Of a DNA stretch of 53,499 bases, positions 1-32,268 are shown piece after piece. A program made the translations under genes and the position numbers. The stretch's first letter is position 1, and each line of letters begins with the position of its first letter. Source of the stretch: Prorocentrum cordatum (lineage: Eukaryota); contig CAUYUJ010000310.1 of the NCBI GenBank assembly GCA_963575745.1, forward strand, positions 62,001 to 115,499, in the 5' to 3' direction. Under the pieces are notes generated by a model that made no database searches, was not told the origin of the DNA, and was given only the letters and a program-made list of their open reading frames with translations.

Positions 1-1284
1 CGGAGCTTATCAGCTCGACAGGGGCGTCAGTACTCCAGGTTGCCATAAGATCCTGTCCGAGTCCTGACAAGTCGTCGCCGCAATCGTCATTTCCGTCTTC
101 GACGTGCTTTTTAATGCGGCGAGGCTTGATGCCTGCTTCCTTTTCGGCTTTGAGCCTTTCCTTCTGCTTTATACGCGATTCAGTGGGTAAAGCTTGCTCG
201 TTTTGTTCGTCGGTCTGTGTACTCATTGTCGTGGTGGAATGGGTACATGCGTCAATCGCCAGAGTCGGGAGGGGGAGAGAACAGTCATCTATGATGACGC
301 GTCTATGTTTCTGTGGTGATTGAGTAGGCTCGTTTCCGAGCAAGACCGGTTCCTCGGGTTGCCAATACAACCGAGTACTGATGTTGGCAACCCCTGCAGG
401 TAATGGTGCATGCCAATCATACCCTGTTGGTTGATCGGTAACTGAGATATCTTGAATAACCGCGTTGGTATCCAATTGATTGTTACACGTCGGATAACTT
501 CAGACCATTTTGGTCCTCCTTTATGAGTCGTCACGTAATGACGAGTATTATGGTCTGTACGTGTATACGTATTTAAGTATACGGGCACGTTTCCGTGCGT
601 GGTGGTACTCCCCAGGATTTTGTCGTTTAGGTAACGGATGAGTGTAGTACGTGTCTGAGCCCGCCATTCAGCATGTCGTACCGTATGGCCGTACCAGTCC
701 AACACATGTTGTGGTATGGCCTGCTTACAGGTACATGTCCACAGCTTCGAGCTAATCGGTATCGATGATGCTATCTGCATATATGTACCACTTGGTGTAT
801 TGTCTTGCATATTGAACCGAATACCGAAATGACACAAACGCATCCGTATTACTGACAACTTCAGATCTTCCAGAGTATCACGTACTGGAGATAACTTCCA
901 AACGTATCCTGGGGGACCGAATATGATGATTTTCATGCGGAGTTTCTTGGCTTTTATCAACAGGTTCTGGATACGTGACCAGTGTGGGGCCACTCTCTTT
1001 CCTGGAGTTCGTATATACCAGTCACCCGGAGTACTGATCCATATGAGAGTGTAATCTCCACTGATCACCGCACCTAGATAATTTGTGCCCACGCTTGTCA
1101 TAAGTTCGTTGTGGGAAATACGGTCACAAATATAACCTCGTGTGCGGAGGTCGGCACATGCCTCCCTCGTATCTTCAATGACAAAAGCCCTCTTACTAAG
1201 GCAGGTTGCCCCGCTGTCCTTGTTACCCCCCGGCTTTTCAGCCATCAGGCAAGACGACGAGGGGGCGACGTCGCCCTGCCATCT
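1..1284 (-). CDS. 5' part of pol of element 1: degenerate DNMT-like domain and linker, one frameshift near 475, open at the window edge
   Basis: In frame with the polyprotein past the UGA. Contains LIWISTPGDW, IIIFGPPG, MRLCHFG and CTC..H. Restoring one base at about 475 turns RRVTIN-WIP into RRVTINLDTNAVIQD and gives a frame open to position 1 (..LPTESRIKQKERLK..HVEDGNDDCGDDLSGL). Confidence 0.7.
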
Positions 1285-1287
1285 TCA
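1225..1287 (-). promoter_or_regulatory. UGA stop plus H-type pseudoknot: candidate programmed readthrough signal between gag-PR and pol
   Basis: UGA (1285-1287) is in frame with the downstream ORF. Stem 1 is GGCAGGGCGACG (1269-1280) paired with CGUCGUCUUGCC (1248-1259). Loop bases GCCCCCU can pair with GGGGGGU (1225-1231). A GGCU-GAAA-AGCC hairpin (1232-1243) lies between them. Confidence 0.7.
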
Positions 1288-4200
1288 AGATGAAGAAGAT
1301 GTGCCTACAATATCTGCCAACATCTGGGCTTCCCTCAGATGCTGGAGCTCAGCACTGCAGCGCGCCGTGGCCTCAGAGGCGGATTGCTCCGCAAATGCTG
1401 TCAGCATCGATGGATTATCCATCAGCTGTTTCAGCGCGCCTTTGGACCTAGCGTCGCTGACCGTATGCAATTCACGATTAGTGTATCCCATCACTATTTT
1501 ACGGCGGGACTGCACAGCGTCCATGGGTACACTACCACCATGCTTGGCCAGTGTCCTGGCAACAAAACAATCGAACGTCTCGAGATCGTCGATGTTGTCG
1601 CCTCGCATGGTGGCCTTGGCGAGCGTCTCCATCAACCCCTGGGGCAGGTTTCCCTGCAATTGATTGCGCTCCTGCGCTGGGGTCGGCTCGCCTGTCAGCA
1701 CTGTCTGGAAGGACGTGCTGCTTGAGCCCGAGGCGGGTTGCCCCGCAGCTCCAAAACGATCACACCTGATCGACAGATGCCCTGACGGCAACTTCGTCGT
1801 CGGCATGATTTTGGAGCCTTCCGGGAGCTCCATCTTGACCTGCCCCTTACCAGGGAATATCAGCTTTTCCTGGCCTCGTTCAAGCACGATGATCGTGCGT
1901 TTGTCCTGCATACTATCGAGACCTAGGATGGCTGGCAGGTCCTTTCCACAGCCTGACACAATGTTCGTCTTGTATGAATCGTGTTGGGCTGACCCCTGGT
2001 ACTCGCAGGCAATGCTAAATGTGCCTACGGTATCCGCTGGGGCCGACCCCTCTCCCACTCCGTTGATATGCAAACGAGAGCGGGGCTCGAATGTACAAGC
2101 ACGACCATGTGACTCAGCAGCCTGAACGAACTTACGGCTCGTGTTCTCGCCCATGATGTTGATCTTCGAACCGACGTCGATGAGTATGGAATTTCCACCA
2201 TCATCCAAGAACGTCTTACTCGGCTGCTTGATGTGCACAGTTTCTGAAGTGTCGGCTGTGTCGGTAGGCGGGTTTCCCCGCGGCACATTCGTACTCCCTG
2301 GCGGGTTACCCCGCACGACACTGGCATGCGACTCGCTCTCGGCCATGCGTGCCAGGTCAATGTACTGGAAGTACGACACGTGCTGGGCGTGATCACCACG
2401 CTCCTCCCGCCAGTTGGCATACTCATCACGTATGCTCATATACTGCTCGCGGGTAGTGCGCCTTATCAGCGTTAGGTACGAGTGAAGGGCGATGTCTTGC
2501 AGCCCTTCGTTCATGACGTGATCCCGGTACCGCAGCCACTCCTCGAACTCCTCATTCGTCGCTGAGATGTTGACGGCCCTGGCTGCTGCTGCTGACGCCG
2601 CTGAGGATTCTGATAGGTCTAACGACGGACTATCAGTTTCAGGATTATTGGCATCTAGCATAAACGTTGTGTGTGTATTATCCATCTGATTCTGGAAATG
2701 TCGTACACGCAACTCGCGCAGCTGATCAGGGTCCAATGACATCTCAACCTCGCCTCCACTCTGGGGAGACATCTGAGGAGTATCCTGCAGGTTTCCCTGC
2801 TGAGGCGCCGTCATCGGGATAAGCTGATCGAAATATCCCGTTGCCATAGGCGGCCTTACCTCTTCAGGCAGGTGTCCCTGCTGGTGTGACGAAGCTGTCT
2901 GCATAGCTAGCATCCTGGCCGTCATCTCCTCCACCATGCTCCTTAGCTCCCGCAGCTCCCTCATTGACTGCTCGGGAGTCTGACTAAGGGAGCCAGTCCA
3001 TGGGAAGGACGATGTTATAATGCCAGGTGCACGACAGATCGCACATGGTGGCTGCTGTGGATCTCCCTCGCGCTGGTTTGTCACGTGGCCCACCACGTTA
3101 GAATTCCAGCATCCCTCGTGGAATAGGTGATTGCACCTCAGGCGATACACACTATCCCTGGGCTGAAATTCTTCGAGGCATACAGCACAGGTGTCCTCCA
3201 TCCCAGTAAAGACTTCTACGTCTGCTACCCTGGGATATACCCGCCGCTGCCTCTCCAGTACCGTCTCGGAGGGCATGAAGGCTGATGGGGGAGTCCCCGT
3301 TAGGTCCATCACCTCCGGCCCTTCGACATTTGGCATGGAAGTGGTAGGAGTCACGGCGGGCGAGTTTCCTCGCAAAGGTGAGCCCCTATTCCGCACCACA
3401 TCGAGTGCAGCTGCACGTGACTGGTCCCGTACACTTTGCACCGCCTGCCTCCTCATGAAACATGCCTGCTGAGTGTGGTGCGTCTGCCTGATGTAGTCAG
3501 GCACGCCCCTACTGCCAGACGATATTGAATGGGCAGTGGGTTGTACAACCACCTCTGGTGATGTTGGGGAAGGCATGAAGGCCATGTGCGGGTACATGGA
3601 GTGGTCACTGCAGCGCACATTGGTGAGGTGATGCATCTGATCCGCCAATTCCCGAACAAATTTGTTCGGGACCCTTGTACCGTCAGGGTATAATGGCGGA
3701 TTCATCTGCGTGGGTGGTGGCCTCTGGCCCTGAGACATGCTCGGATGGGCGTTGAACGCCAGGATAAAGGCTCTCTGCCGAGCGGGGTCCCGTGGGTTGG
3801 GACCCTCCGGTTCCCAGGACCAGGCTGGCCTCCACCTCTGCCCACTTGGGTGAGGCAGATTATGGTTCTGCACCTGCTGTACCGCGGCCGCCACTCTTGA
3901 GCGATAGTCGTCGGGTATACCCGCCCTGTGGTGGCTTGGTGTACCAGGCAGGTTTCCCTGCTGACTCGTTGGCGTGCCGGGCGGCATCATGTTGAGGAGG
4001 GCTGTGCTGTGATCAGCCCTAGCCGCAGCTAGCCTCTCCATGAGTGTGCCGTTTACTGCAGGGCGAACAGGTGTCCCAAATGGGGATTGTGCTGGCGGAG
4101 TGCCCGCTGGAGTCATGCCCCTTGGAGTGTGCATGCTCTGTGTGGGGCTTGCGTGCATTGGCTCGAACCGAGCAGGTCCGCTTGTAGGCAGGTTTCCCTG

Positions 4201-7200
4201 CATGGCTTGACGATTTCTCGTGGCCATAGCGGACATTGCTCCCTGGCCTGCGGCCCAGGGATCCTGCTGGTACAGCCTGTCCGCCAGCTGTTCTACCTGG
4301 TCAGGGTTCAGCGCAGCTGCAATCTGATCCAGGTCTGAAGTACTTATGGCCTGCCAAGACACGGCGCTCGGCCCTTGGCTTGGGGCACGGCTTGGAGCCG
4401 CGCTCCCGGCCTCACTCTCGGTGATCATAAAGATCCGAAAGATCTCAGGCTGGTTTCCCAGCTGGGTGGGGCTGTAGTGGTCCCCAACGTCCCTGTGGAG
4501 GTAGACCATGGCTGGATCAACGCCCTCTTGGTCTCGGGACCACTTGTACTTAACGCTGGAATCACCAACATCAGCCCACCTATCTGGGGCAGTCATCATA
4601 CTGACAGAGACTCGCGCACGGCGGATCCCCAAATATTCTGGGTTGCGCCATTGCCTTCCAGTGGTCAGGTCCTCTACATGGGAAATGTAATACGGTTCAA
4701 TGATACCGTTATCTCCCTCGGACAAGAGGACTCCGTTATCGGACCAACAGAACTTTATACCATCTTGTATGGCCTTGCGCCAATCTACAAAGATGATGAG
4801 GTCTGATTCTGGGTCCCACCCACTGTTCACGGCACGGCGGCGCAATGTCGGCACGAAGTGGATGTGTGAACGGCCTGTCCCCGTTTTCTTCGTGTTGTGC
4901 TCAGGTCTACAGGACAGGCCGTGCCACATAATGCCTTCGAAAGCGTGCCATCGAGTGCCATGCATGGCGACTTCAGGGTATTTGGCCGGTCTCCCGGCGG
5001 GTTCGTCGCACAGTACAATGTAGCTGTACAGCGACCATGGAGCTTTCAATTTCCATGAATGCCCCTGAGAGGCGCGGACGAAGATAGCAGGCTCGCCAGA
5101 GTCCCGCATTAGCACCTTGAATTGAAGGCGCTGTTTTTCTTCTCCGTCTGGTTCACGAACATGAACAACTTCCATCATGATGGCTGCGAGTTGGTCAACC
5201 GAGCGACCATACAACTGCTCGCTAATAACTTTGGCCTCTTCATAAGCGTGCCTCGAGTGACTTGTGTTCCAAGAAAAGTTCTCCACGAGGTCCACGAGGT
5301 TGATCCAACCATCATGATCATCAAAAGATTTCAGGCGCCACACAGGATTATGTGGCTTATCTGGCGCATGTCTACATATCCTGCTGATAGCTTTGCTTAA
5401 CCTTTTAAGAGTATCATTGGATCTGGGAAGAATTCCGGCCTTCCTGCATTCCTTCATGAATGGCTCATCCACCGAACGTATCGGTGGGAGCTTCCGAAGT
5501 GCCAGTCTATCCCTGATCAGATCTGGAGTCCCACTAGTGAAGGATGTGTCTCCTGGGTGGTGCAGCTGAACTGCTGGCGGGTTTCCCCGCATCGGAGCCT
5601 CTGTTGCTGAAGAGGCTGCGGCTCCTGAAGAGGAGGAAGCTGCGGCAGCAGCGCCTGGCGGGTTTCCCCGCGGAGATGCGCGACTGGCGCTGCCCCTGAT
5701 CTTCGGCACCCAGTTACCCCTCGACATAGCACCTTCATCGGACCTCCTGGAACGAGCCGCCACAGGCGAAGCTGGCGCAGGTGCATACTCACTGCGCTCG
5801 AAAGCTGCCGCCCGTTCCGCAATGGACTTGCTGCGGCTAAGCGAACGTCTTCGTTCCTCAGTGGGGTCCTGGGGTTGCTGCTTGGGCACAGATGCTGGTA
5901 GGAGCTGCTGTTTCGGCGGCGCCGGAGGCGGCTTAGGTGTCGGGGGTTCACTCTTGGCCTTCGAAGTTAGTGGGAGTGGGGGCTTTCTAGCCCCCTTCAT
6001 GTAGAGCTTGCTGGAATCCTCCAGCATCTTGCGAGTTGCCTCGCGTGTGCGTTCATCTACTGTCTGAATACGCTCCTCATCTTCCGCCACACGTTGAGCC
6101 TTTGTCTCGTCCTTGATGATCGGCTCTGGTTGTTGGGACTGGCTAGATACGCCAGGCGAGTTTCCTCGCATACCAGGAAGACTAAAGAGCGCGTCTTTCT
6201 CTTCCTGGGTCATGGCTACCATTCCCCTTGGAGCCGGAGTAGGTTTCTCTTCTTCTTTCGGATCCAAGTGGCCCAAGATCCCGAGACGACTATTCACTGC
6301 TGCGATCTCTTCCGGTGTCATCGGGTCAAGTGGCGGATGGCCCTCCTTAGGAGGGGTTTTGCCCCTGTTGGGGCTCAGGCCTTCGTTGTTTCCAACGGGG
6401 CATCCTGGCCTGTGATTCTGGAACGGCTGGGAACAAGGACCACATGCAGCGTGAGGCCTATACTGCTTGCGAGCCGCGATAATATCTCGCAACTGGGTCC
6501 GCGCTTCTTGAATTTCAGGGCGGCGGATGTTTGTTGCAAGCTGATAGCCTCCACGGATGGGTCTGCCATCGCCGTCCCTATAGGCAGGATTGCCCTGGCC
6601 GAAGGCCGAGTGTTCCCCTTTTCGGCGTCGTGGGTCGTTGTGTGGAAGTAGCTGGCCACCTCTTCTGGCAGCGTGTTCCTTTGGGCCAGCCTGTCTCCAA
6701 TCACGAGGGAGTCGAGCCTGAGGATGTGGCTCTCCTCTGACGCGCGTATGGGAACGAGATCTTCTGGTGTTCTCATCAGAAGAGGCTGCTGATGCAGCAG
6801 GAGCGGCACCCGTTGGAGGTGCTTGAGGAGGCTCCTCTGCGATCCCGGGTGGATCGCTCGATGGAGGCAGGTCTCCCTGCTGGGTGGAGCTCGGCGCAAG
6901 TGGCTCTTGTGCCGATGGTGATGATGGTTCAGACTCATCAGGGTCGAAATCGACCTCTTCCTCACCAGTCACGTCCATCATGAGGATGGTGACGTCATCC
7001 TCATCTAACCCACAACCATCGCCTTCTACTTCTTCTGATGTCGAACTACCAATTATGATGGCCATTGGCGCATCTGGTAAAGGCAGGTTTCCCTGCATGG
7101 CCGGCGTCTGGCCGTCACTCGGCTGTCCTGGAGTAGGAGGCACAGTCGTCGGCTCAGGGTCATCGACGAGCATAGGCTGCCTAGCAATGTTACGCATGGC

Positions 7201-9972
7201 CGTATGGTTTGGCCTCATCCCCAGCTCCTGGAGATTCCATCCTGGCGGGGGAAGATCATGACCACGCATAGCCATTGCCATTTCCAGGGCACGACGCCAT
7301 CTACCATGGGAGTATACTAAGTGTCGTTGCACTTCCTGAGGATTTATACGGTCAATGAGAGACAAAGCTGCCAAGAGTAGCTCTGAGCTACCGCAAGCAT
7401 CATTATCATTATCTGTCATAATACCAGCTTCAATTTGTTCTTGACTCTCAGGATCTGCAATTGCAAGTATCTCATGCGTCCACATGAGGGTCTGCAAAAG
7501 TGTACGCGGTCCATATTCGCCTGGAGCAAGCGAAACAGGAGGTATGAACGGAGAACCTGGTTCACCTGCAATGAAGGCCTGAACAAATGCTTGAGACTCC
7601 ATTTCAATTAAGTCTTCAATAGTATGGGGATATTCTCCCAGCAGAAAAGGCCTGTGTCCAGGCGGGATTTCGGGCGGAGGTTCGAGGTTCTGTTGAACCT
7701 CGGAAGGCGAAGCCTCTATAGTGGTGTCCTCTCCGTCGTTCTCGTAGGCCATGATGTTGCCTGGGTTCCCGAACATCCAGTCGAAGAAGGAAAGAGGCTC
7801 GTTTCCGAGCGTACCGTGTTCCACGGGAGTGAGTTCATTACTGCCCGTGACGAACCGGCGGACGTACTCGAGGTAATACGCGTATAATCCATGACCATAC
7901 CCCTCGAGCTCGTCAATGTTGTCCATGCCAACGACCCATGTGAAAAATATCTGTTCCATAGCCTCAAAGTCCTGGAGGCTCAGATACTCAATGGATGGTG
8001 TGCTTGAGCCGAAATGGACTTCGGACGACATGCCCTTTCCATTTCCCTTCGCTGGACAATCTCGCACAAGATGATCGGTACTACCACACTCATGACATTT
8101 GAGAACCTGGCCGTCTCTACCTCGCGGGTTTCCCCGCCTACCTTTGCCTTTTCCTGAGGTCTCTCTACGGCCTTTACCGCGGCCTTTTCCCCCAAAGAAT
8201 ATCTCATCATGTTGTTCATCTGAGAGCCTCTGGAGAAATGCCGCGATACCTCGCCCGTTCAACCTCCGACGACCACGCTTGCCTTTACCCTTTCCTTTAA
8301 AACTTCTGCGTATCCTCCTTCTAACACGACGCACTGGTTTTCGTGTGAACCTCCTCCACCTTCGCTTAGCCTGTTGTAACAGCCAGAATAAATGCTCAGC
8401 ACGCTGATTGTCGTTATCCATATTCATGATATCTGACCAATCTAGAGCTTCAACACCATCTGATGATATAGTGTCTGTATCGGTGCCGGAGTCGAAATCT
8501 TCGTCTCCTAAATAGGTGGATACACCGTCGGTTAGGGGATTTGATTCCCCCCATAACGAGCGGTGTGGTTGTGGTTCTCTAGAAGGAGGGCTGGTTGCCC
8601 AGCTTGGTTGTGATCGATCCCCTGCTAATAAAGCAGTGGATTCTCCTGGGTCATCGGCCCATATGTTTGAGGGCCCGTTTCCAGGCTGGACTTCAGTAGT
8701 CAAGGTAGTGTAGAAATTTCCACTACCAGATCCCCTTCCTCTTCCAAACACGGATCCTATGTTGCCAGGGGATCGTTCGGATAGGTGACCTACCGAACGC
8801 ATCGTTTCCAGCAACTCATCATATTGTTGTTGTGTTCGAGGCATTTGGTGGTTGAGTGGCTGCAAGAGTTGCGTGGCTTTCTGGTTGCCGACGCCTAAGG
8901 CGCGGAATAGGATAGTAGTTAGCAGTTGGAAGTTAAGAAGGTCGAATCCCACCGACTGTGCCTCAAGTCGGGCCATTTCGAATCGGGTAAGAGTGACATC
9001 GATTCGTTCCCCGTGAGCCGCATGGAAGTCGATGAGTTGTGTGCCGGAAGTGAGCTGTCGCTCATCTTCCAGGCGTTCGAACTTCATGCTGAGGAGGAAC
9101 ATGATGTAAGTTACTGGGTCCGTGTGGACCCCATCAATGTCAGCACCATAGTTTATAATGTCAGGCGGTACCCTCATGGCGAGTGTCCTCGCTAGGCCTC
9201 CCAGGCCGCGTTGTATTGCGGCCGCTTGGGCCTGTGGCGTCATACGTCCGCTTGTAACGTTGAGCCACGCGTTGACCTCGTAAATGTACTCACGAAAAGG
9301 TACATTACCCTGAGGGTCCCAGTATGGGCCATGTGTTTGCCCATCGGTGCTGTTATCTCCCCGACGCATGTGTGCGATTGCTGCCCCCAGCGCGAACCAT
9401 ATGATAGCGAAAACGATTAGCCCGAGAATGTGTAACGAAGAATGGTTATGATGAGCGGTGTCACGCTGGGGTAGCGCCTTGTCGAGTCTTCGAGGCGCTC
9501 TGTCTGGCGGGTTTCCCCGCCCTTGCTTCAGGTATTGCGTTATTGGCTCGTTGCCGAGCGGTTGATAGTAACGCAATGATGAAGCGTATATGGTACCAAT
9601 CTGGTCGTCTAGACGTCGTACCTCTCGTGTAGCTTCTTGCTCTTGAATAGATCCTCGTAAATGTACTGGGAGTGGTGGCGCAGGGTAGTAGGTGGTCACG
9701 AAGATCGCGCCGAAGAGTGTGAGGCTGAGAAGAGCAAGAGCTGACCACGCGAGAGGGCGGCCAGCTCCGCTACCAAGTCGAAAGTGAGCTTGGTAACTCA
9801 AATAGGGCATATAGCCTGTCATATAGCATCCGATTCCAAGGCGCTGACCGTGGACATCGGATGGCAAATAGCGTCCATCGCTCTGCTGTAGCTGTGAAGG
9901 TACAGTATGAGGGGTGGGCGGATAAGATAGGATAAGATCGATGTAATGATCTTTCCAGCACATAGCGAACAC
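1285..9972 (-). CDS. Gag-protease polyprotein with Tpt1/KptA and RING-H2 cargo (2895-aa ORF; first AUG after the PBS is at 9369)
   Basis: Uninterrupted 8.7-kb ORF with gag (about 8780-9369), CHECGSTDHLVRDC knuckle, Tpt1, RING-H2 and a retropepsin-like domain. The first ~65 codons lie in the putative LTR. Confidence 0.9.
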   Translation of the reverse strand: MFAMCWKDHYIDLILSYPPTPHTVPSQLQQSDGRYLPSDVHGQRLGIGCYMTGYMPYLSYQAHFRLGSGAGRPLAWSALALLSLTLFGAIFVTTYYPAPPLPVHLRGSIQEQEATREVRRLDDQIGTIYASSLRYYQPLGNEPITQYLKQGRGNPPDRAPRRLDKALPQRDTAHHNHSSLHILGLIVFAIIWFALGAAIAHMRRGDNSTDGQTHGPYWDPQGNVPFREYIYEVNAWLNVTSGRMTPQAQAAAIQRGLGGLARTLAMRVPPDIINYGADIDGVHTDPVTYIMFLLSMKFERLEDERQLTSGTQLIDFHAAHGERIDVTLTRFEMARLEAQSVGFDLLNFQLLTTILFRALGVGNQKATQLLQPLNHQMPRTQQQYDELLETMRSVGHLSERSPGNIGSVFGRGRGSGSGNFYTTLTTEVQPGNGPSNIWADDPGESTALLAGDRSQPSWATSPPSREPQPHRSLWGESNPLTDGVSTYLGDEDFDSGTDTDTISSDGVEALDWSDIMNMDNDNQRAEHLFWLLQQAKRRWRRFTRKPVRRVRRRIRRSFKGKGKGKRGRRRLNGRGIAAFLQRLSDEQHDEIFFGGKGRGKGRRETSGKGKGRRGNPRGRDGQVLKCHECGSTDHLVRDCPAKGNGKGMSSEVHFGSSTPSIEYLSLQDFEAMEQIFFTWVVGMDNIDELEGYGHGLYAYYLEYVRRFVTGSNELTPVEHGTLGNEPLSFFDWMFGNPGNIMAYENDGEDTTIEASPSEVQQNLEPPPEIPPGHRPFLLGEYPHTIEDLIEMESQAFVQAFIAGEPGSPFIPPVSLAPGEYGPRTLLQTLMWTHEILAIADPESQEQIEAGIMTDNDNDACGSSELLLAALSLIDRINPQEVQRHLVYSHGRWRRALEMAMAMRGHDLPPPGWNLQELGMRPNHTAMRNIARQPMLVDDPEPTTVPPTPGQPSDGQTPAMQGNLPLPDAPMAIIIGSSTSEEVEGDGCGLDEDDVTILMMDVTGEEEVDFDPDESEPSSPSAQEPLAPSSTQQGDLPPSSDPPGIAEEPPQAPPTGAAPAASAASSDENTRRSRSHTRVRGEPHPQARLPRDWRQAGPKEHAARRGGQLLPHNDPRRRKGEHSAFGQGNPAYRDGDGRPIRGGYQLATNIRRPEIQEARTQLRDIIAARKQYRPHAACGPCSQPFQNHRPGCPVGNNEGLSPNRGKTPPKEGHPPLDPMTPEEIAAVNSRLGILGHLDPKEEEKPTPAPRGMVAMTQEEKDALFSLPGMRGNSPGVSSQSQQPEPIIKDETKAQRVAEDEERIQTVDERTREATRKMLEDSSKLYMKGARKPPLPLTSKAKSEPPTPKPPPAPPKQQLLPASVPKQQPQDPTEERRRSLSRSKSIAERAAAFERSEYAPAPASPVAARSRRSDEGAMSRGNWVPKIRGSASRASPRGNPPGAAAAASSSSGAAASSATEAPMRGNPPAVQLHHPGDTSFTSGTPDLIRDRLALRKLPPIRSVDEPFMKECRKAGILPRSNDTLKRLSKAISRICRHAPDKPHNPVWRLKSFDDHDGWINLVDLVENFSWNTSHSRHAYEEAKVISEQLYGRSVDQLAAIMMEVVHVREPDGEEKQRLQFKVLMRDSGEPAIFVRASQGHSWKLKAPWSLYSYIVLCDEPAGRPAKYPEVAMHGTRWHAFEGIMWHGLSCRPEHNTKKTGTGRSHIHFVPTLRRRAVNSGWDPESDLIIFVDWRKAIQDGIKFCWSDNGVLLSEGDNGIIEPYYISHVEDLTTGRQWRNPEYLGIRRARVSVSMMTAPDRWADVGDSSVKYKWSRDQEGVDPAMVYLHRDVGDHYSPTQLGNQPEIFRIFMITESEAGSAAPSRAPSQGPSAVSWQAISTSDLDQIAAALNPDQVEQLADRLYQQDPWAAGQGAMSAMATRNRQAMQGNLPTSGPARFEPMHASPTQSMHTPRGMTPAGTPPAQSPFGTPVRPAVNGTLMERLAAARADHSTALLNMMPPGTPTSQQGNLPGTPSHHRAGIPDDYRSRVAAAVQQVQNHNLPHPSGQRWRPAWSWEPEGPNPRDPARQRAFILAFNAHPSMSQGQRPPPTQMNPPLYPDGTRVPNKFVRELADQMHHLTNVRCSDHSMYPHMAFMPSPTSPEVVVQPTAHSISSGSRGVPDYIRQTHHTQQACFMRRQAVQSVRDQSRAAALDVVRNRGSPLRGNSPAVTPTTSMPNVEGPEVMDLTGTPPSAFMPSETVLERQRRVYPRVADVEVFTGMEDTCAVCLEEFQPRDSVYRLRCNHLFHEGCWNSNVVGHVTNQREGDPQQPPCAICRAPGIITSSFPWTGSLSQTPEQSMRELRELRSMVEEMTARMLAMQTASSHQQGHLPEEVRPPMATGYFDQLIPMTAPQQGNLQDTPQMSPQSGGEVEMSLDPDQLRELRVRHFQNQMDNTHTTFMLDANNPETDSPSLDLSESSAASAAAARAVNISATNEEFEEWLRYRDHVMNEGLQDIALHSYLTLIRRTTREQYMSIRDEYANWREERGDHAQHVSYFQYIDLARMAESESHASVVRGNPPGSTNVPRGNPPTDTADTSETVHIKQPSKTFLDDGGNSILIDVGSKINIMGENTSRKFVQAAESHGRACTFEPRSRLHINGVGEGSAPADTVGTFSIACEYQGSAQHDSYKTNIVSGCGKDLPAILGLDSMQDKRTIIVLERGQEKLIFPGKGQVKMELPEGSKIMPTTKLPSGHLSIRCDRFGAAGQPASGSSSTSFQTVLTGEPTPAQERNQLQGNLPQGLMETLAKATMRGDNIDDLETFDCFVARTLAKHGGSVPMDAVQSRRKIVMGYTNRELHTVSDARSKGALKQLMDNPSMLTAFAEQSASEATARCSAELQHLREAQMLADIVGTSSSS
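1760..2200 (-). other. Retropepsin-like aspartic protease domain of element 1
   Basis: ILIDVGSKINIMG (D-x-G active-site strand), flap-like INGVGEG, LPAILGLDSM and KLPSGHL. Confidence 0.75.
3034..3189 (-). other. RING-H2 (C3H2C3) zinc finger inside the polyprotein
   Basis: CAVC-x14-CNHLFHEGC-x21-CAIC, with all eight ligands present. Confidence 0.9.
4670..5410 (-). other. TPT1: Tpt1/KptA RNA 2'-phosphotransferase domain inside the polyprotein
   Basis: Family motifs in the correct order: LSKAISRICRH, DHDGWINLVDL, KQRL, FVRASQGHS, HGT, GLS, GRSHIHF, SGW, IIFVDWRKAIQDGIKFCWSDNGVLLSEG-DNGIIEP. Confidence 0.9.
8056..8097 (-). other. CCHC zinc knuckle (nucleocapsid) of element 1
   Basis: CHECGSTDHLVRDC = C-x2-C-x4-H-x4-C, preceded by basic KGKGKG/RR tracts. 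Confidence 0.92.
9764..9775 (-). promoter_or_regulatory. Primer-binding site of element 1 (tRNA-iMet type)
   Basis: TGGTAGCGGAGC, identical to the PBS next to the LTR of element 3. Confidence 0.85.
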
Positions 9973-10053
9973 TCGCGGTGTCCGGGCAAATAGGGCGCGC
10001 GTGCCTTGAGCCCAAGGCAGCGGCGCGCGAGCTATGCTCCCGATACTGTAACA
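9778..10053 (-). repeat. Putative 5' LTR of element 1
   Basis: Starts TGTTAC on the minus strand, ends just before the PBS and contains an SL-like motif. The partner LTR is outside the window and the 3' end is not a clean CA. Confidence 0.55.
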
Positions 10054-10071
10054 TCTCCCAAAGAGCTACCC

Positions 10072-11020
10072 TTAAAGTAGCTGCACGCCCGGGTAGATGT
10101 CTGTTAACCACTTGGCGTCCAGCTTGTTCTTGTGGCCCCTGTTCCTGTCCGCCGGCAGGTAGTGCACCGTCTCAGCGAACAGCGGGAGCTCCTTGCGGTA
10201 CCTCTTCCCGCGGATCCTCTCGTACGCCGTGCGTCCGTCCGCCCCGACGTCGAACGGGCTGATCACCGCGCCTGCGTAGTTGATGAGCCACGGCACGATT
10301 GCATGGTCGTGGCCGATCTTGATCCCATACTGGCGCTCCACCGCCAGCTTCAGGGTCCGCACGATGCCGCTCACGGACTGCACCGCCCGCTCGATCGTGC
10401 CGTTAGCCTGGTGCTCCTCCACCGGGCTCTCCTCCTTCACGATCTTGAAGGTTTCACCCAGCGCCTCGATGACCTTGCTCTTCAGGTCCAGGATCGAGGG
10501 CTCCTGGTCACTCTTGAAGATGAAGTGCTTCACCCCCGTGTACTCGATGGCCTCCGCCACCCACTTGATAATCCAGGCATCTTTCGTGCCCTTACTCGTC
10601 GCGGCGATCGACGCCGTCCATCGCCCCTTGTGCTCACGCATCACCAGCGTGGGCTCTGCTCGCTCGTCGTCTCCACCGAAGAACGTGTAGTCAATGGAGA
10701 TCGTGTTGACTAGATGCTCTCGCTCAGCGTCCAGTCGTCGGTGGTCAGCATTGCGGCCGCGTCCTCCCACGCAGTCTCAGCACCATGCCCTGAACTGCAC
10801 GTGCCCTGCCGCCTCGTGCATCTCCCGCTCGACCGTCGTCGGCTCGAACGGCCGCGGCGCCACCGTGACCGGTGGGTCGCCCATGTCGTCGTCCTCCTCG
10901 TCCTCCAGCGTGGGCTCCACGGGTTCCGCCGCCGCCGGCGCTGCCGCTGAGCTTCCGCCTTCTCGCCGAGGAGGGTCCCCGGTGTTCGGTCTTGCGGCTG
11001 AGCCCGCCGACTGTCCCCCG
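10072..11020 (-). pseudogene. Integrase of element 2 (nonsense codon at 10777-10779, 3'-truncated)
   Basis: HHCC zinc domain HEAAGHVQFRAWC*DC, then DDE core ISIDYTF, KSDQEPSI, QANGTIERAV, followed by DGRTAYER and KLDAKW. Confidence 0.88.
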
Positions 11021-23957: not shown

Positions 23958-24970
23958 CCCCCAAAACCATCCTGTGGTGATGGGTCCTCGTTTCGAAGAG
24001 ACGGTGGCCCGCGTCTCCTCTCCCCCTCCTGCTCTCCTCCTCCTCCTCCTCCTCCTCCTCCTCCTCCTCCTCTCCTCTCCCCGCCCCCCCCTCCTCCTCC
24101 CACTCCTCCCTCCTCCCCCTCTTCCTTGCGTTTCACCAGGCCAGTGCAGCGTTTCGTAGCCCCATCGGGAGCTCCACCGACGGCGCCAGCGGCAGGGTTC
24201 GCATGGCGGCCCTGGGCCATTTCGGCACACCCCTCACGAGGATCGTTGCCCCATGGGGAGCTCCACCGAAGGCCCCAGTGGCAGCGTTCGCATGGCGGCC
24301 TCGGGGCATTTCGGCACACCCCTTACGAGTTTCGTGGCGCCATAGATGAGCTCCACCGAAGGCGCCAGTGGCAGCGTTCGCATGGCGGCCTCGGGCATTT
24401 CGGCACACCCTCACGAGGATCGTGGCCCCATAGGGAGCTCCACCGAAGGCGCCAGTGGCAGCGTTCGCATGGCGGCCTCGGGCCATTTCGGCACACCCCT
24501 CACGAGGATCGTGGCCCCATAGGGAGCTCCACCGAAGGCGCCAGTGGCAGCGTTCGCATGGCGGCCTCGGGCCATTTCGGCACACCCCTCACGAGGATCG
24601 TGGCCCCATGGGGCGCTCCACCGAAGGCCCCAGTGGCAGCGTTCGCATGGCGGCCTCGGGGCATTTCGGCACACCCCTCACGAGGATCGTGGCCCCATAG
24701 GGAGCTCCACCGAAGGCCCCAGTGGCAGCGTTCGCATGGCGGCCTCGGGCCATTTCGGCACACCCCTTACGAGGATCGTGGCGCCTATAGGACAGGGGCT
24801 TCGCCGAGGGCGCCAGTGGCAGGGTTCGCATGGCGGCCTCGGGCCATGTCGGCACACCCCTCACGAGGATCGTGGCCCCATAGGAGCTCCAGCGAAGGCG
24901 CCAGTGGCAAGGTTCGCACGGCGGCCTCGGGCCATTGCGGCACACCCCTCGCGAGGATCGCGGCCCCATA
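23958..24970 (+). repeat. Composite repeat A: conserved head, (CCT)n, then about nine 89-bp tandem units
   Basis: Unit CGTGGCCCCATAGGGAGCTCCACCGAAGGCGCCAGTGGCAGCGTTCGCATGGCGGCCTCGGGCCATTTCGGCACACCCCTCACGAGGAT (89 bp). The head is shared with 30730-30784. Confidence 0.92.
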
Positions 24971-30723: not shown

Positions 30724-31678
30724 TTTCCCAACCATCCTGTGGTGTTGGGTCCTCGTTTTGAAGAGACGGTGCCCCGCGTCTCCTTCCTCTCCTCCTCCGC
30801 CTCCTCTCCCCTCCTATCATCGTCATCATCATCATCATCATCACCATCGTCATGCGTCAAGCACACCCATTTTGGCACATCCCTCACACGTTTCGTGGCC
30901 CCATAGGGAACTCCACCTAAGGTCCAAGTGGCGCAGCTCGCATGGCGCCACCGCTCTATTTTGGCACACCCCTCACACGTTTCGTGGCCCCATAGGGAGC
31001 TCCATTTACGGTCCAAGTGGCGCAGCTCGCATGGCGCCACCGCCCCATTTTGGCACACCCCTCACGCGTTTCGTGGCCCCATAGGGAACTCCATCTACGG
31101 TCCAAGTGGCGCAGCTCGCATGGCGCCACCGCCCCATTTTGGCACACCCCTCACAGATTTCGTGGCCCCTCAGGGAGCTCCTTTTGGCACACCCCTCACA
31201 CGTTTCGTGGCCCCATAGGGAGCTCCACCTAAGGTCCACGTGGCGCAGCTCGCATGGCGCCACCGCCCCTTTTTGGCACACCCCTCACACGTTTCGTGGC
31301 CCCATAGGGAGCTCCATTTACGGTCCAAGTGGCGCAGCTCGCATGGCGCCACCGCCCCATTTTGGCACACCCCTCGCAGATTTCGTGGCCCCTCAGGGAG
31401 CTCCACCTGAGGTCCAAGTGGCGCAGCTCGCATGGCGCCACCGCCCCATTTGGGCACACCCCTCACACGCTTCGTGGCCCCATAGGGAGCTCCACCTAAG
31501 GTCCACGTGGCGCAGCTCGCATGGCGCCACCGCCCCTTTTTGGCACACCCCTCACACGTTTCGTGGCCCCATAGGGAGCTCCATTTACGGTCCAAGTGGC
31601 GCAGCTCGCATGGCGCCACCGCCCCATTTTGGCACACCCCTCTCACTTTTCGTGGCCCCTCAGGGAGCTGCACCTAAG
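30724..31678 (+). repeat. Composite repeat B: same head, pyrimidine/(CAT)n tract, then about nine 89-bp tandem units of a related variant
   Basis: Unit CGTGGCCCCATAGGGAGCTCCATTTACGGTCCAAGTGGCGCAGCTCGCATGGCGCCACCGCCCCATTTTGGCACACCCCTCACACGTTT, period 89. Confidence 0.92.
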
Positions 31679-31679
31679 G

Positions 31680-32268
31680 TTCCTGAGGGAAAAGCCTCAC
31701 GGGGGACCTCGCGGGCCCGCTGGTGTTCATCGAGCCCCGCGCGTCGGAGCCGTTCACCTTCCGCACCTCCAAGGTCACGCGGACGGGCTTCCCGTTCTCG
31801 CACGGCAGGGTCATCACCGCGGTGGCGTGCCAGGGGCGCGCCATGCGCGAAGGCGACGGGGCGGGGGAACGGCGCTCCGGGGACGGCCAGACCTCCGGGG
31901 CGCGAGCAGTCCGCGGCCAGACCTCGGTCCTGTGGACTCTCGCCCTGGGCCGTCGGCTGCCCGGCGCACTGCTCCCTCGGCCGAGTCGCCCAGGTGTGAT
32001 CCTGGACTGCGGCCGCCACGAGGTCGGGAACGGCAAGAAGGAGGACGACGACTGGTGGCTGGAGCTCTATGTGCTGCTCTCGCGCGCCACGCGCCGCGAG
32101 GACCTCCTGCTCATGCGGGCGCCGCGCATCGAGTTCTTCCTGGCAGGACCGCCGGAGGGCCTGCGAAAGCAGCTGGAGCAGTTTGCAGCGCGCGCGAAGC
32201 GGTGCAGGAGGGAGGCGACGGCCCTCGCCAGGGAGCTCGGCTTCACCGAGTTTATCCGCGAGGCCTGA
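31680..32268 (+). pseudogene. C-terminal Pif1-family (Helitron-type) helicase fragment, two exons
   Basis: VTRTGFPFSHGRVITAVACQGRAM (motif V-like), VILD and LYVLLSRATRREDLLL (motif VI-like). Confidence 0.7.
31853..31993 (+). other. Putative 141-nt GC-AG intron with terminal inverted repeats
   Basis: Junctions AG|GC..CAG|G. Removal joins QGRAMRE-G-VILDCGR. GGCGAC and GTCGCC lie at the two ends. Confidence 0.65.

Follow-up and report, generated by a model that had tools for sequence, protein, structure and literature searches.

During our analysis of a 53,499-nucleotide (nt) stretch of the Prorocentrum cordatum genome (GenBank assembly GCA_963575745.1, contig CAUYUJ010000310.1, positions 62,001 to 115,499 of the forward strand; hereafter the window, numbered from its first letter) we found that a high-copy, putatively Ty1/copia-like retrotransposon at its left end carries on the sense (minus) strand, within 328-9559, 29 copies of a hairpin of the form GC-NN-G-GNNA-C-N'N'-GC (Table 1). 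We regard it as highly probable that these copies form a selected sense-strand array, one in which selection acts on the nucleic acid itself, not on the encoded protein. That they are binding sites for the Gag protein of the element, acting in packaging or self-recognition, is a more tentative proposal drawn from the sequence, to which we would give somewhat less than an even chance; the complete statement, i.e., a selected array with a Gag-binding role, we hold with the same reserve. The related DNA used for comparison consists of two metagenome-contig loci from a sister lineage, L001 (3.7 kb) and L002 (8.8 kb).

An earlier note on this DNA had reported 24 hairpins; all 24 of its starts carry the motif on the minus strand, but the total is 29, the additional copies being three that have GACA loops (1547, 7650 and 9179) and two that have GCAA loops (6031 and 8590). 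The loop types it had listed were likewise recovered (GAAA in 17 hairpins, GCAA in 5, GACA in 4, GAGA in 2 and GUAA in 1), except that GACA, which it had counted once, is present in four copies. With a GNRA loop defined as a G-N-R-A tetraloop on a Watson-Crick closing pair, 25 of the 29 loops are GNRA loops and the remaining four are GACA. The note was correct that a C follows 22 of its 24 copies, and in the larger set a C lies directly 3' of the hairpin in 26 of 29 (binomial P 4e-12). A G directly 5' of the stem is found in just 2 of 29 copies (P 0.007), and owing to this rarity the stem could be extended in only one of the 29 (9507). There are nine distinct stems, all of them paired, the two commonest having seven copies each, and G.U pairs occur in two hairpins (1201 and 8673), the number given in the note. 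Spacing between hairpins ranges from 33 to 711 nt, or about one hairpin per 330 nt along 9.2 kb. Twenty-six hairpins lie in the main open reading frame (ORF), 19 in the phase translated as xGNxP, four in a second phase and three in a third, the last two being the minority phases that the note had described; three further copies (328, 585 and 1201) are in the downstream ORF P0002. At hairpin 7650, a G-to-T change at 7656 in most contigs of four sequencing runs restores a GAAA loop, and 7656 is the sole difference inside a hairpin among the 40 listed of ~1,700 contig differences.

Hairpin number, pairing and folding

The polyprotein ORF (1285-9972, 8688 nt) holds its 26 hairpins against a mean of 1.36 and a maximum of 5 in 500 synonymous-codon shuffles in which the protein was kept; the means were 0.034 for codon-order shuffles and 0.043 for base shuffles. 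Neither the plus strand of the element nor the 43 kb of the window beyond it, scanned on both strands, contains a copy. The earlier note had supposed that the hairpins would outnumber those of codon shuffles, of the opposite strand and of DNA outside the element, and within the window all three comparisons bear this out.

A pairing-blind scan, which used the fixed letters GC..GG..AC..GC alone and so guards against selecting on pairing, gave 29 matches in the element, and both free pairs were complementary in every one (29/29). Outside the element the same frame was matched four times on the minus strand (19188, 23651, 25946 and 33301), with none of the four pairing, and not at all on the plus strand; the matches in L002 (17/17) and L001 (7/7) also pair. 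Only a single one-defect copy was seen in the element vs. 29 perfect ones, and this one-defect count is about the background rate of the rest of the window.

The window (29 hairpins), L002 (17) and L001 (2, excluding five copies that repeat L002 positions) supplied the 48 hairpins of our alignment. All 240 of the 240 pair cells hold standard pairs, and 40 cells show two-sided changes compared with 6.6 +/- 3.4 in shuffles, none of 500 reaching 40; with slid partners only 27-48% of cells pair. Three of the five stem pairs are invariant, and the two inner pairs show five pair types each. Since a G.U pair on the sense strand is an A.C mismatch on the opposite strand, such pairs function on the sense strand only. 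Isolated hairpins have predicted energies of -7 to -9 kcal/mol, and the antisense reading of a G.U-containing copy is predicted to reach only -1.6. Placed in a 164-nt context, the window hairpins have a mean five-pair probability of 0.86 with 25 of 29 in the predicted local minimum-energy fold, and those of L001 have a mean pair probability of 0.82 with 5 of 7 in that fold.

The sister lineage

The L002 ORF is collinear with the window ORF (45% identity in Gag, 27% in the Tpt1-to-RING part) and has Tpt1 and RING matches of its own, Tpt1 lying at ORF residues 1387-1620; each lineage has one hairpin within the Tpt1 domain, at different places. The same hairpin frame is present 17 times in sense vs. 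2 times in antisense in L002, and 7 vs. 1 in L001, with 15 (L002) and 7 (L001) hairpins within the ORF where synonymous shuffles gave 0.61 and 0.29, respectively. The loop is GCAA in 13 of 17 copies in L002 and in all seven in L001, the commonest L002 stem (eight copies) contains a G.U, the third pair is G.U in 9 of 17 L002 copies, and the base 3' of the hairpin is not C. Loop and 3' base are uniform within a lineage and different between lineages, even at shared positions. Most of the sister-lineage hairpins are in another codon phase, giving AGQPA and not xGNxP, and 10 of the 15 ORF hairpins of L002 are in one phase.

These comparisons make it hard to maintain that selection acts on a peptide (xGNxP as a protease site or short linear motif) and that the hairpin is incidental, an explanation that is largely refuted and that we consider extremely improbable. 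The peptide x-G-N/D/H-x-P/L is indeed encoded by 19 of the 26 ORF copies, in one phase, and DPxGNVPF, PGNIG and GNP are conserved at three Gag positions where the sister lineage is without a hairpin. However, the two flanking residues vary only as nucleotide-complementary pairs (Q-L, R-P, L-E, R-S, L-Q and H-V), the pattern is destroyed by synonymous shuffles, seven ORF copies use other phases, three copies lie in another ORF, and the sister lineage has AGQPA at the same places. Placing the constraint at the nucleic-acid level, and on the RNA-sense strand, as the earlier note did, is thus upheld by the covarying stems, by the sense-only G.U pairs and by a sister lineage in which both peptide and phase have changed.

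In the protein alignment, a window hairpin is found no more than 5 columns away for 5 of the 15 L002 ORF hairpins, where the null means are 1.29 for random placement (P 0.005) and 1.51 for placement in poorly conserved parts (P 0.014). Four of these five position-matched hairpins are in a different codon phase, i.e., the peptide is changed and the hairpin is present. An additional position match is that of the L001 hairpin at window 6031, which has the same 14 letters. Between L001 and L002 (84.8% nucleotide identity), five of the seven hairpins of L001 have an intact counterpart at the corresponding site of L002 against a simulated neutral survival of 0.164 (P 0.002), and identity is 91 of 99 in hairpin columns vs. 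2972 of 3514 outside them (Fisher P 0.046). The differing phase at shared positions, together with the phase bias within each lineage, indicates that hairpins have been replaced and not inherited base for base.

Such replacement is also expected of a copying process (gene conversion, template switching by reverse transcriptase (RT), or insertion of a 14-15-nt mini-palindrome) that would leave the array as a by-product of little function. Many copies within an element are letter-identical, as the seven and seven copies of the two commonest stems and the eight in L002 attest, the codon-phase bias is strong in each lineage, and the unit plus its 3' C measures 15 nt, so that the reading frame is never broken. 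We nevertheless think a copying origin of this kind quite unlikely, because all nine stems stay paired, unlike the product of simple copying, and because not one copy was found in the 43 kb outside the element. Moreover, most sites at which one lineage is without a hairpin have no 5-codon gap, there are hardly any decayed copies (29 perfect vs. 1 one-defect), and hairpin retention between L001 and L002 is above the neutral expectation.

Other features of the sister loci were recorded separately. Two hairpins (52 and 599) precede the L002 Gag within an 819-nt upstream stretch, both borne by an ORF within L002 1-886 that ends at 691, ~195 nt before the Gag start. By eye, and without a Pfam match, this upstream ORF looks like the C-terminal end of Pol, which would suggest tandem copies, a very short long terminal repeat (LTR), or an assembly wrapping round the element. 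An antisense hairpin with the loop GUUA is at a homologous place in L001 (610) and L002 (1324), and antisense one-defect matches number 4 in L001 and 8 in L002.

A candidate reader of the array

We interpret the hairpins as a structural motif of the sense RNA of a dinoflagellate Ty1/copia-like retrotransposon lineage. The unit is a 5-base-pair stem, with the outer G-C and C-G pairs and the closing G-C pair fixed and the two inner pairs freely covarying, capped by a GNRA-type tetraloop; the copies sit mostly in poorly conserved linkers of the polyprotein, with xGNxP, AGQPA and the like as tolerated by-product peptides. The array may then offer many equivalent sites to an element-encoded RNA-binding protein, the candidate reader being the arginine-rich stretch of Gag (a putative RNA binder, which includes a tryptophan) together with its CCHC knuckle, and this would allow the genomic RNA of the element to be picked out, captured or packaged among cellular RNAs. 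Loop and 3' neighbour would co-evolve with the reader in each lineage, as GAAA with a 3' C here and as G.U-stemmed GCAA hairpins in the sister. The three invariant pairs, and the uniformity of loop and 3' base by lineage, suggest a reader whose recognition goes beyond stability and shifts from one lineage to the other; that such a reader acts in trans is suggested also by the arginine-rich stretch and CCHC knuckle that the element encodes and by the copia-type RT in its family.

Several points weigh against selection on the hairpins or against Gag as their reader. Retroviruses and retrotransposons usually have their packaging signals confined to a region close to the 5' end, and the preference of zinc-knuckle nucleocapsid (NC) proteins is for exposed G residues over compact GNRA loops. 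The L002 hairpins have a mean pair probability of 0.58 in the 164-nt context, with just 10 of 17 in the predicted local minimum-energy fold. Two sites in the sister lineage have the peptide but no hairpin, namely 8124, where GNP is preserved, and 9179 in the conserved Gag core, where the peptide is nearly identical; in some copies, part of the sequence may therefore be due to protein constraint or chance. The earlier note had held that homologues keeping the peptide without the pairing would tell against it, and these two sites do so, but elsewhere the sister keeps the hairpin and changes peptide and phase. The coincidence in position could stem from permissive linkers common to both lineages, or from similar peptides that draw the alignment together, and the bias to one phase per lineage (19/26 in the window, 10/15 in L002) fits peptide tolerance and also a copy-and-paste origin. 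Finally, the hairpin DNA comes from two lineages only, the window and L001/L002, the latter two being 85% identical to each other.

It is possible, though in our judgement unlikely, that the RNA structure acts independently of Gag, e.g., in protection from decay or internal processing, in nuclear export, or in compaction via tetraloop contacts. Stable, covarying sense-strand hairpins along the whole RNA would suit such a role, and GNRA loops are classic tertiary-contact motifs. Stability alone, however, leaves unexplained the three invariant pairs, as it does the lineage-uniform loop and 3' base; in addition, the closing pair is G-C, whereas C-G is usually favoured for GNRA loops, and half-motifs of the 11-nt GAAA receptor are unremarkable (CCTAAG is found twice in the window element and not in L002).

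We also considered whether the functional form might be single-stranded DNA (ssDNA), i.e., hairpins in plus-strand cDNA or in the non-template strand that serve as pause, priming or recombination sites in the sense orientation. A G.T wobble is tolerated in DNA, small GNRA-like loops stabilise DNA mini-hairpins too, and the sequence reads alike for sense RNA and sense ssDNA, which it cannot separate. Against this, it is as RNA that a retroelement naturally exists in long-lived single-stranded form, the G.U sites (9/17 in L002) would become A.C mismatches in minus-strand cDNA, and no retroelement step with ~30 dispersed DNA hairpins is known, making this explanation very improbable.

Comparison with known systems

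By analogy, the closest functional counterpart of an array read by Gag would be the dispersed packaging signals known from small RNA viruses, a concept treated in PMC6281560. Similarities to the signals of single-stranded RNA (ssRNA) viruses are the many short stem-loops with one loop motif and variable stems scattered in coding genomic RNA; taking many stem-loops with a common loop motif, scattered on an RNA, as the mark of such signals, we count 29 copies in 9.2 kb for the window and 17 in 8.8 kb for L002. The viral signals are read multivalently by the coat protein, as the array here would be by Gag; it belongs to a nuclear LTR-type retrotransposon of a dinoflagellate and not to an RNA virus, and it is far stricter (exact 5-base-pair stem, three invariant pairs and a tetraloop), with copies that are nearly all perfect. 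In alphaviruses the packaging signal consists of repeated coding-region stem-loops.

Psi of retroviruses and Ty elements comprises cis-acting hairpins with purine-rich tetraloops that are recognised by zinc-knuckle Gag/NC. The window element resembles this in having RNA hairpins with purine-rich tetraloops and a Gag bearing a zinc knuckle, with recognition here being proposed; unlike the array, which has ~30 equivalent hairpins over at least 9 kb, mostly in ORFs, Psi is one compact 5' region. In the N-boxB system of phages lambda and P22, an arginine-rich peptide reads a 5-base-pair stem with a loop of GNRA-type fold. The array unit similarly combines a 5-base-pair stem with a GNRA-type loop, and the Gag of the element has an arginine-rich stretch with a tryptophan, but boxB has a pentaloop, is present once or twice per transcript and acts in antitermination, and we imply no homology. 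Rickettsia palindromic elements (RPEs) and mitochondrial GC clusters are mobile units of greater length that spread into a wide range of unrelated genes. Like the array, they place a hairpin-forming sequence in protein-coding genes where it is tolerated and translated; unlike them, the array has a 14-15-nt unit confined to one element lineage. With zero copies in the 43 kb beyond the element, both strands counted, a mobile in-frame palindromic element of the RPE kind was ruled out.

PMC5890265 gives copia as the most abundant superfamily in Symbiodinium, and its text contains no occurrence of 'hairpin', 'Gag', 'RING' or 'phosphotransferase'. The window element is like dinoflagellate Ty1/copia elements in its knuckle-bearing Gag, its protease-like region and the copia-type RT of family member P0081, and differs in that its lineage adds a Tpt1 domain, ~1500 amino acids (aa) of spacer and the hairpin array. 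The limited full-text collection that we searched contained no account of a retrotransposon with an array of this kind.

The wider family and Tpt1

A profile of the Gag region identified 1513 cluster representatives at E-values up to 0.001. Family member P0081 (3301 aa) has a copia-type RT (RVT_2, residues 3058-3288) at its end and a putative integrase, the latter by our own reading of the sequence. A protein search found no relatives of P0001, the window polyprotein, at near length; no loci related to the whole of P0001 were found in metagenomes, and a family-alignment search of genome contigs and viral contigs found none either.

For proteins without DNA we used as a proxy the peptides able to encode the hairpin, a measure that other hairpin types would escape. 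By this proxy P0001 has 27 observed vs. 1.9 expected, and the proteins of the L001/L002 lineage are enriched as well (P0003, 6 vs. 0.86; P0004, 3 vs. 0.38), as are P0002 and a short protein, P0154 (4 vs. 0.22). The other 91 family proteins of at least 300 aa showed no enrichment (72 observed vs. 58.4 expected). As enrichment is confined to few proteins, this hairpin is a lineage trait.

Dispersed repeated peptides of other kinds were seen in P0019, P0033, P0017, P0065 and P0154 (QLAEA 5-6 times, TVSTV 4, SVPAE 3, GIGTQ 3-4 and QESRGDTRTL 3); judged from the sequence, these may be lineage-specific nucleic-acid motifs analogous to the hairpins. RING was found in 30 of the 39 other family proteins scanned, and such a finger, lying between Gag and the protease-like region, is typical of these dinoflagellate copia-like elements as a family.

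Tpt1, by contrast with RING, was found in 0 of the same 39 proteins and is present in the window element and L002. This raises the prospect that the array and the Tpt1 of the element form one module, in which loops would be cut and re-joined, or marked with 2'-phosphate or ADP-ribose, and these marks resolved or written by Tpt1. Among the family proteins examined, Tpt1 and the array co-occur in one lineage only, hairpin-compatible peptides are enriched only in the Tpt1 lineage and the one short protein named above, and the Tpt1 domain contains putatively catalytic motifs. The co-occurrence represents a single evolutionary branch, however, known Tpt1 substrates are 2'-phosphorylated splice junctions and not GNRA loops, and cleavage at the loops is itself hypothetical, so we give such a module little credence. 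If it were true, the element would encode an RNA repair or marking system that separates 'self' from host RNA. The earlier note had read the hairpin within the Tpt1 domain as a tag on captured cargo; this reading fails because Tpt1 is an old and collinear part of the polyprotein in both lineages, L002 (27% identity) included.

The host element and its polyprotein

Table 1. Features of the retroelement in the window, with sense-strand hairpins written as RNA (5' arm-loop-3' arm).
Feature	Position	Strand	Evidence or remark
High-copy retroelement part	1..10065	minus	contig depth, GC; 5' end ~10065-10078, 3' part beyond left edge of window
Downstream ORF P0002, 318 aa	289..1245	minus	without Pfam family
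Polyprotein ORF P0001, 2895 aa	1285..9972	minus	Gag-like core, arginine-rich stretch, CCHC knuckle, Tpt1, RING, protease-like end; 26 hairpins
Aspartic-protease-like region	1909..2187	minus	motif reading; D-V-G-S and I-L-G-L-D motifs common to family proteins
RING finger	3031..3195	minus	Pfam zf-RING_11, zf-RING_2
Tpt1/KptA RNA 2'-phosphotransferase domain	4714..5406	minus	Pfam PF01885, E 6.1e-23
CCHC zinc knuckle, C-X2-C-X4-H-X4-C	8056..8097	minus	Pfam zf-CCHC 19.6 bits, just below 20.8 cut-off
Arginine-rich stretch of Gag, residues 535-558	8299..8370	minus	kept across family
Conserved Gag-like core, residues 215-383	8824..9330	minus	63-65% identity to P0003, P0004, L001, L002
Hairpin GCUCG-GAAA-CGAGC	328..341	minus	
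Hairpin GCACG-GAAA-CGUGC	585..598	minus	
Hairpin GCGGG-GCAA-CCUGC	1201..1214	minus	G.U
Hairpin GCCAG-GACA-CUGGC	1547..1560	minus	absent from earlier note
Hairpin GCAGG-GAAA-CCUGC	1644..1657	minus	
Hairpin GCGGG-GCAA-CCCGC	1733..1746	minus	phase 0 (AGQPA)
Hairpin GCGGG-GAAA-CCCGC	2268..2281	minus	
Hairpin GCGGG-GUAA-CCCGC	2301..2314	minus	
Hairpin GCAGG-GAAA-CCUGC	2787..2800	minus	
Hairpin GCAGG-GACA-CCUGC	2868..2881	minus	L002 hairpin within 2 alignment columns, other codon phase
Hairpin GCGAG-GAAA-CUCGC	3360..3373	minus	same alignment column as L002 hairpin of different stem and loop
Hairpin GCAGG-GAAA-CCUGC	3948..3961	minus	
Hairpin GCAGG-GAAA-CCUGC	4188..4201	minus	L002 hairpin 5 alignment columns off, other codon phase
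Hairpin GCUGG-GAAA-CCAGC	4449..4462	minus	
Hairpin GCCGG-GAGA-CCGGC	4985..4998	minus	within Tpt1 domain
Hairpin GCGGG-GAAA-CCCGC	5577..5590	minus	
Hairpin GCGGG-GAAA-CCCGC	5658..5671	minus	
Hairpin GCGAG-GCAA-CUCGC	6031..6044	minus	absent from earlier note; identical 14-mer in L001, same alignment column
Hairpin GCGAG-GAAA-CUCGC	6156..6169	minus	
Hairpin GCAGG-GAGA-CCUGC	6867..6880	minus	
Hairpin GCAGG-GAAA-CCUGC	7083..7096	minus	
Hairpin GCCUG-GACA-CAGGC	7650..7663	minus	absent from earlier note; GAAA in most other element copies
Hairpin GCUCG-GAAA-CGAGC	7797..7810	minus	L001 and L002 hairpins 1 alignment column off, other codon phase
Hairpin GCGGG-GAAA-CCCGC	8124..8137	minus	L002 keeps GNP peptide without hairpin
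Hairpin GCUGG-GCAA-CCAGC	8590..8603	minus	absent from earlier note
Hairpin GCCUG-GAAA-CGGGC	8673..8686	minus	U.G; L001 and L002 hairpins 3 alignment columns off, other codon phase
Hairpin GCGAG-GACA-CUCGC	9179..9192	minus	absent from earlier note; in conserved Gag core; L001/L002 near-unchanged peptide without hairpin
Hairpin GCGGG-GAAA-CCCGC	9507..9520	minus	
Hairpin GCUCG-GCAA-CGAGC	9546..9559	minus	

Contigs of four sequencing runs were piled up on the window by the thousands at 80-100% identity and ended at ~10064-10078, and the summed contig depth fell from 6647/9175 (bin 9717-10063) to 176/389 (bin 10064-10400), indicating a very high-copy repeat with its 5' end there. The GC content is 52-57% in the element vs. 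58-70% in the flanks. Among the matches listed, at least 20 sequencing runs from 14 studies contain part of the stretch, mostly marine metagenomes, with no RNA run among them, and the element ranks with the highest-copy repeats in the runs containing the stretch. The nearest named protein is from Prorocentrum cordatum (95% identity over a short stretch).

Since the element runs off the left edge, its integrase/RT part would lie outside the window. From the depth drop to the first Met there are only ~100 nt, leaving scant room for an LTR. The leader (9964-10078, minus strand, ~115 nt) contains a long GC-rich predicted hairpin of -44.5 kcal/mol. The layout of the polyprotein includes about 1500 aa of spacer, and the Cys/His spacing of the knuckle, read from the sequence, is conserved in relatives. 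P0002 has weak collinear similarity to P0081 (E 0.02). Pfam searches at E-values up to 5 found nothing for P0002, the protease-like end or the L002 upstream ORF.

A comparison of the window with itself revealed no further copy of the element, the tblastx rows being low-complexity noise, and the sole 21-22-nt repeats were a pair of identical hairpins plus flanking letters and one palindrome. We also observed contig joints 2258>5574 and 2258>9500 (the latter with two extra letters) in runs X1, X2 and X3, which adjoin the letter-identical hairpins 2268, 5577 and 9507. As pointers to a copying process these joints are weak; they may be deletion derivatives formed by switching between hairpins or mapping artefacts, one listed side being 21 letters long, and we set them aside as evidence.

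The surrounding DNA

An open frame without a Pfam family (10072-10770, minus strand) abuts the 5' end of the element and is possibly an older mobile element hosting the insertion. Pfam searches of 26 other ORFs of the window found nothing, Rfam at gathering thresholds gave no matches in the whole window, and a tRNA search of the window was likewise negative. Two 89-nt tandem-repeat arrays with similar-looking units and 90% matches (24154-24969, 9.1 copies; 30866-31680, ~5.6-9 copies) and long CCT/CTC microsatellites point to repeat-rich host DNA.

Implications

If the array is what we propose, it would be an unusually clean natural RNA code overprinted on a protein code, with ~30 hairpins of the same format preserved without flaw in a 2895-codon ORF whose peptide is free to change (xGNxP to AGQPA in the sister) while the hairpin persists. 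Dispersed packaging signals would thereby be extended from small RNA viruses to an LTR-type retrotransposon, and the Gag and its hairpins would constitute a testable protein-RNA pair that has seemingly co-evolved in two lineages. The presence of a retroelement-borne Tpt1 alongside the hairpins is a second question that is made approachable. Given the high copy number of the element, a simple motif scan could flag its active lineages in dinoflagellates, whose genomes are difficult to annotate.

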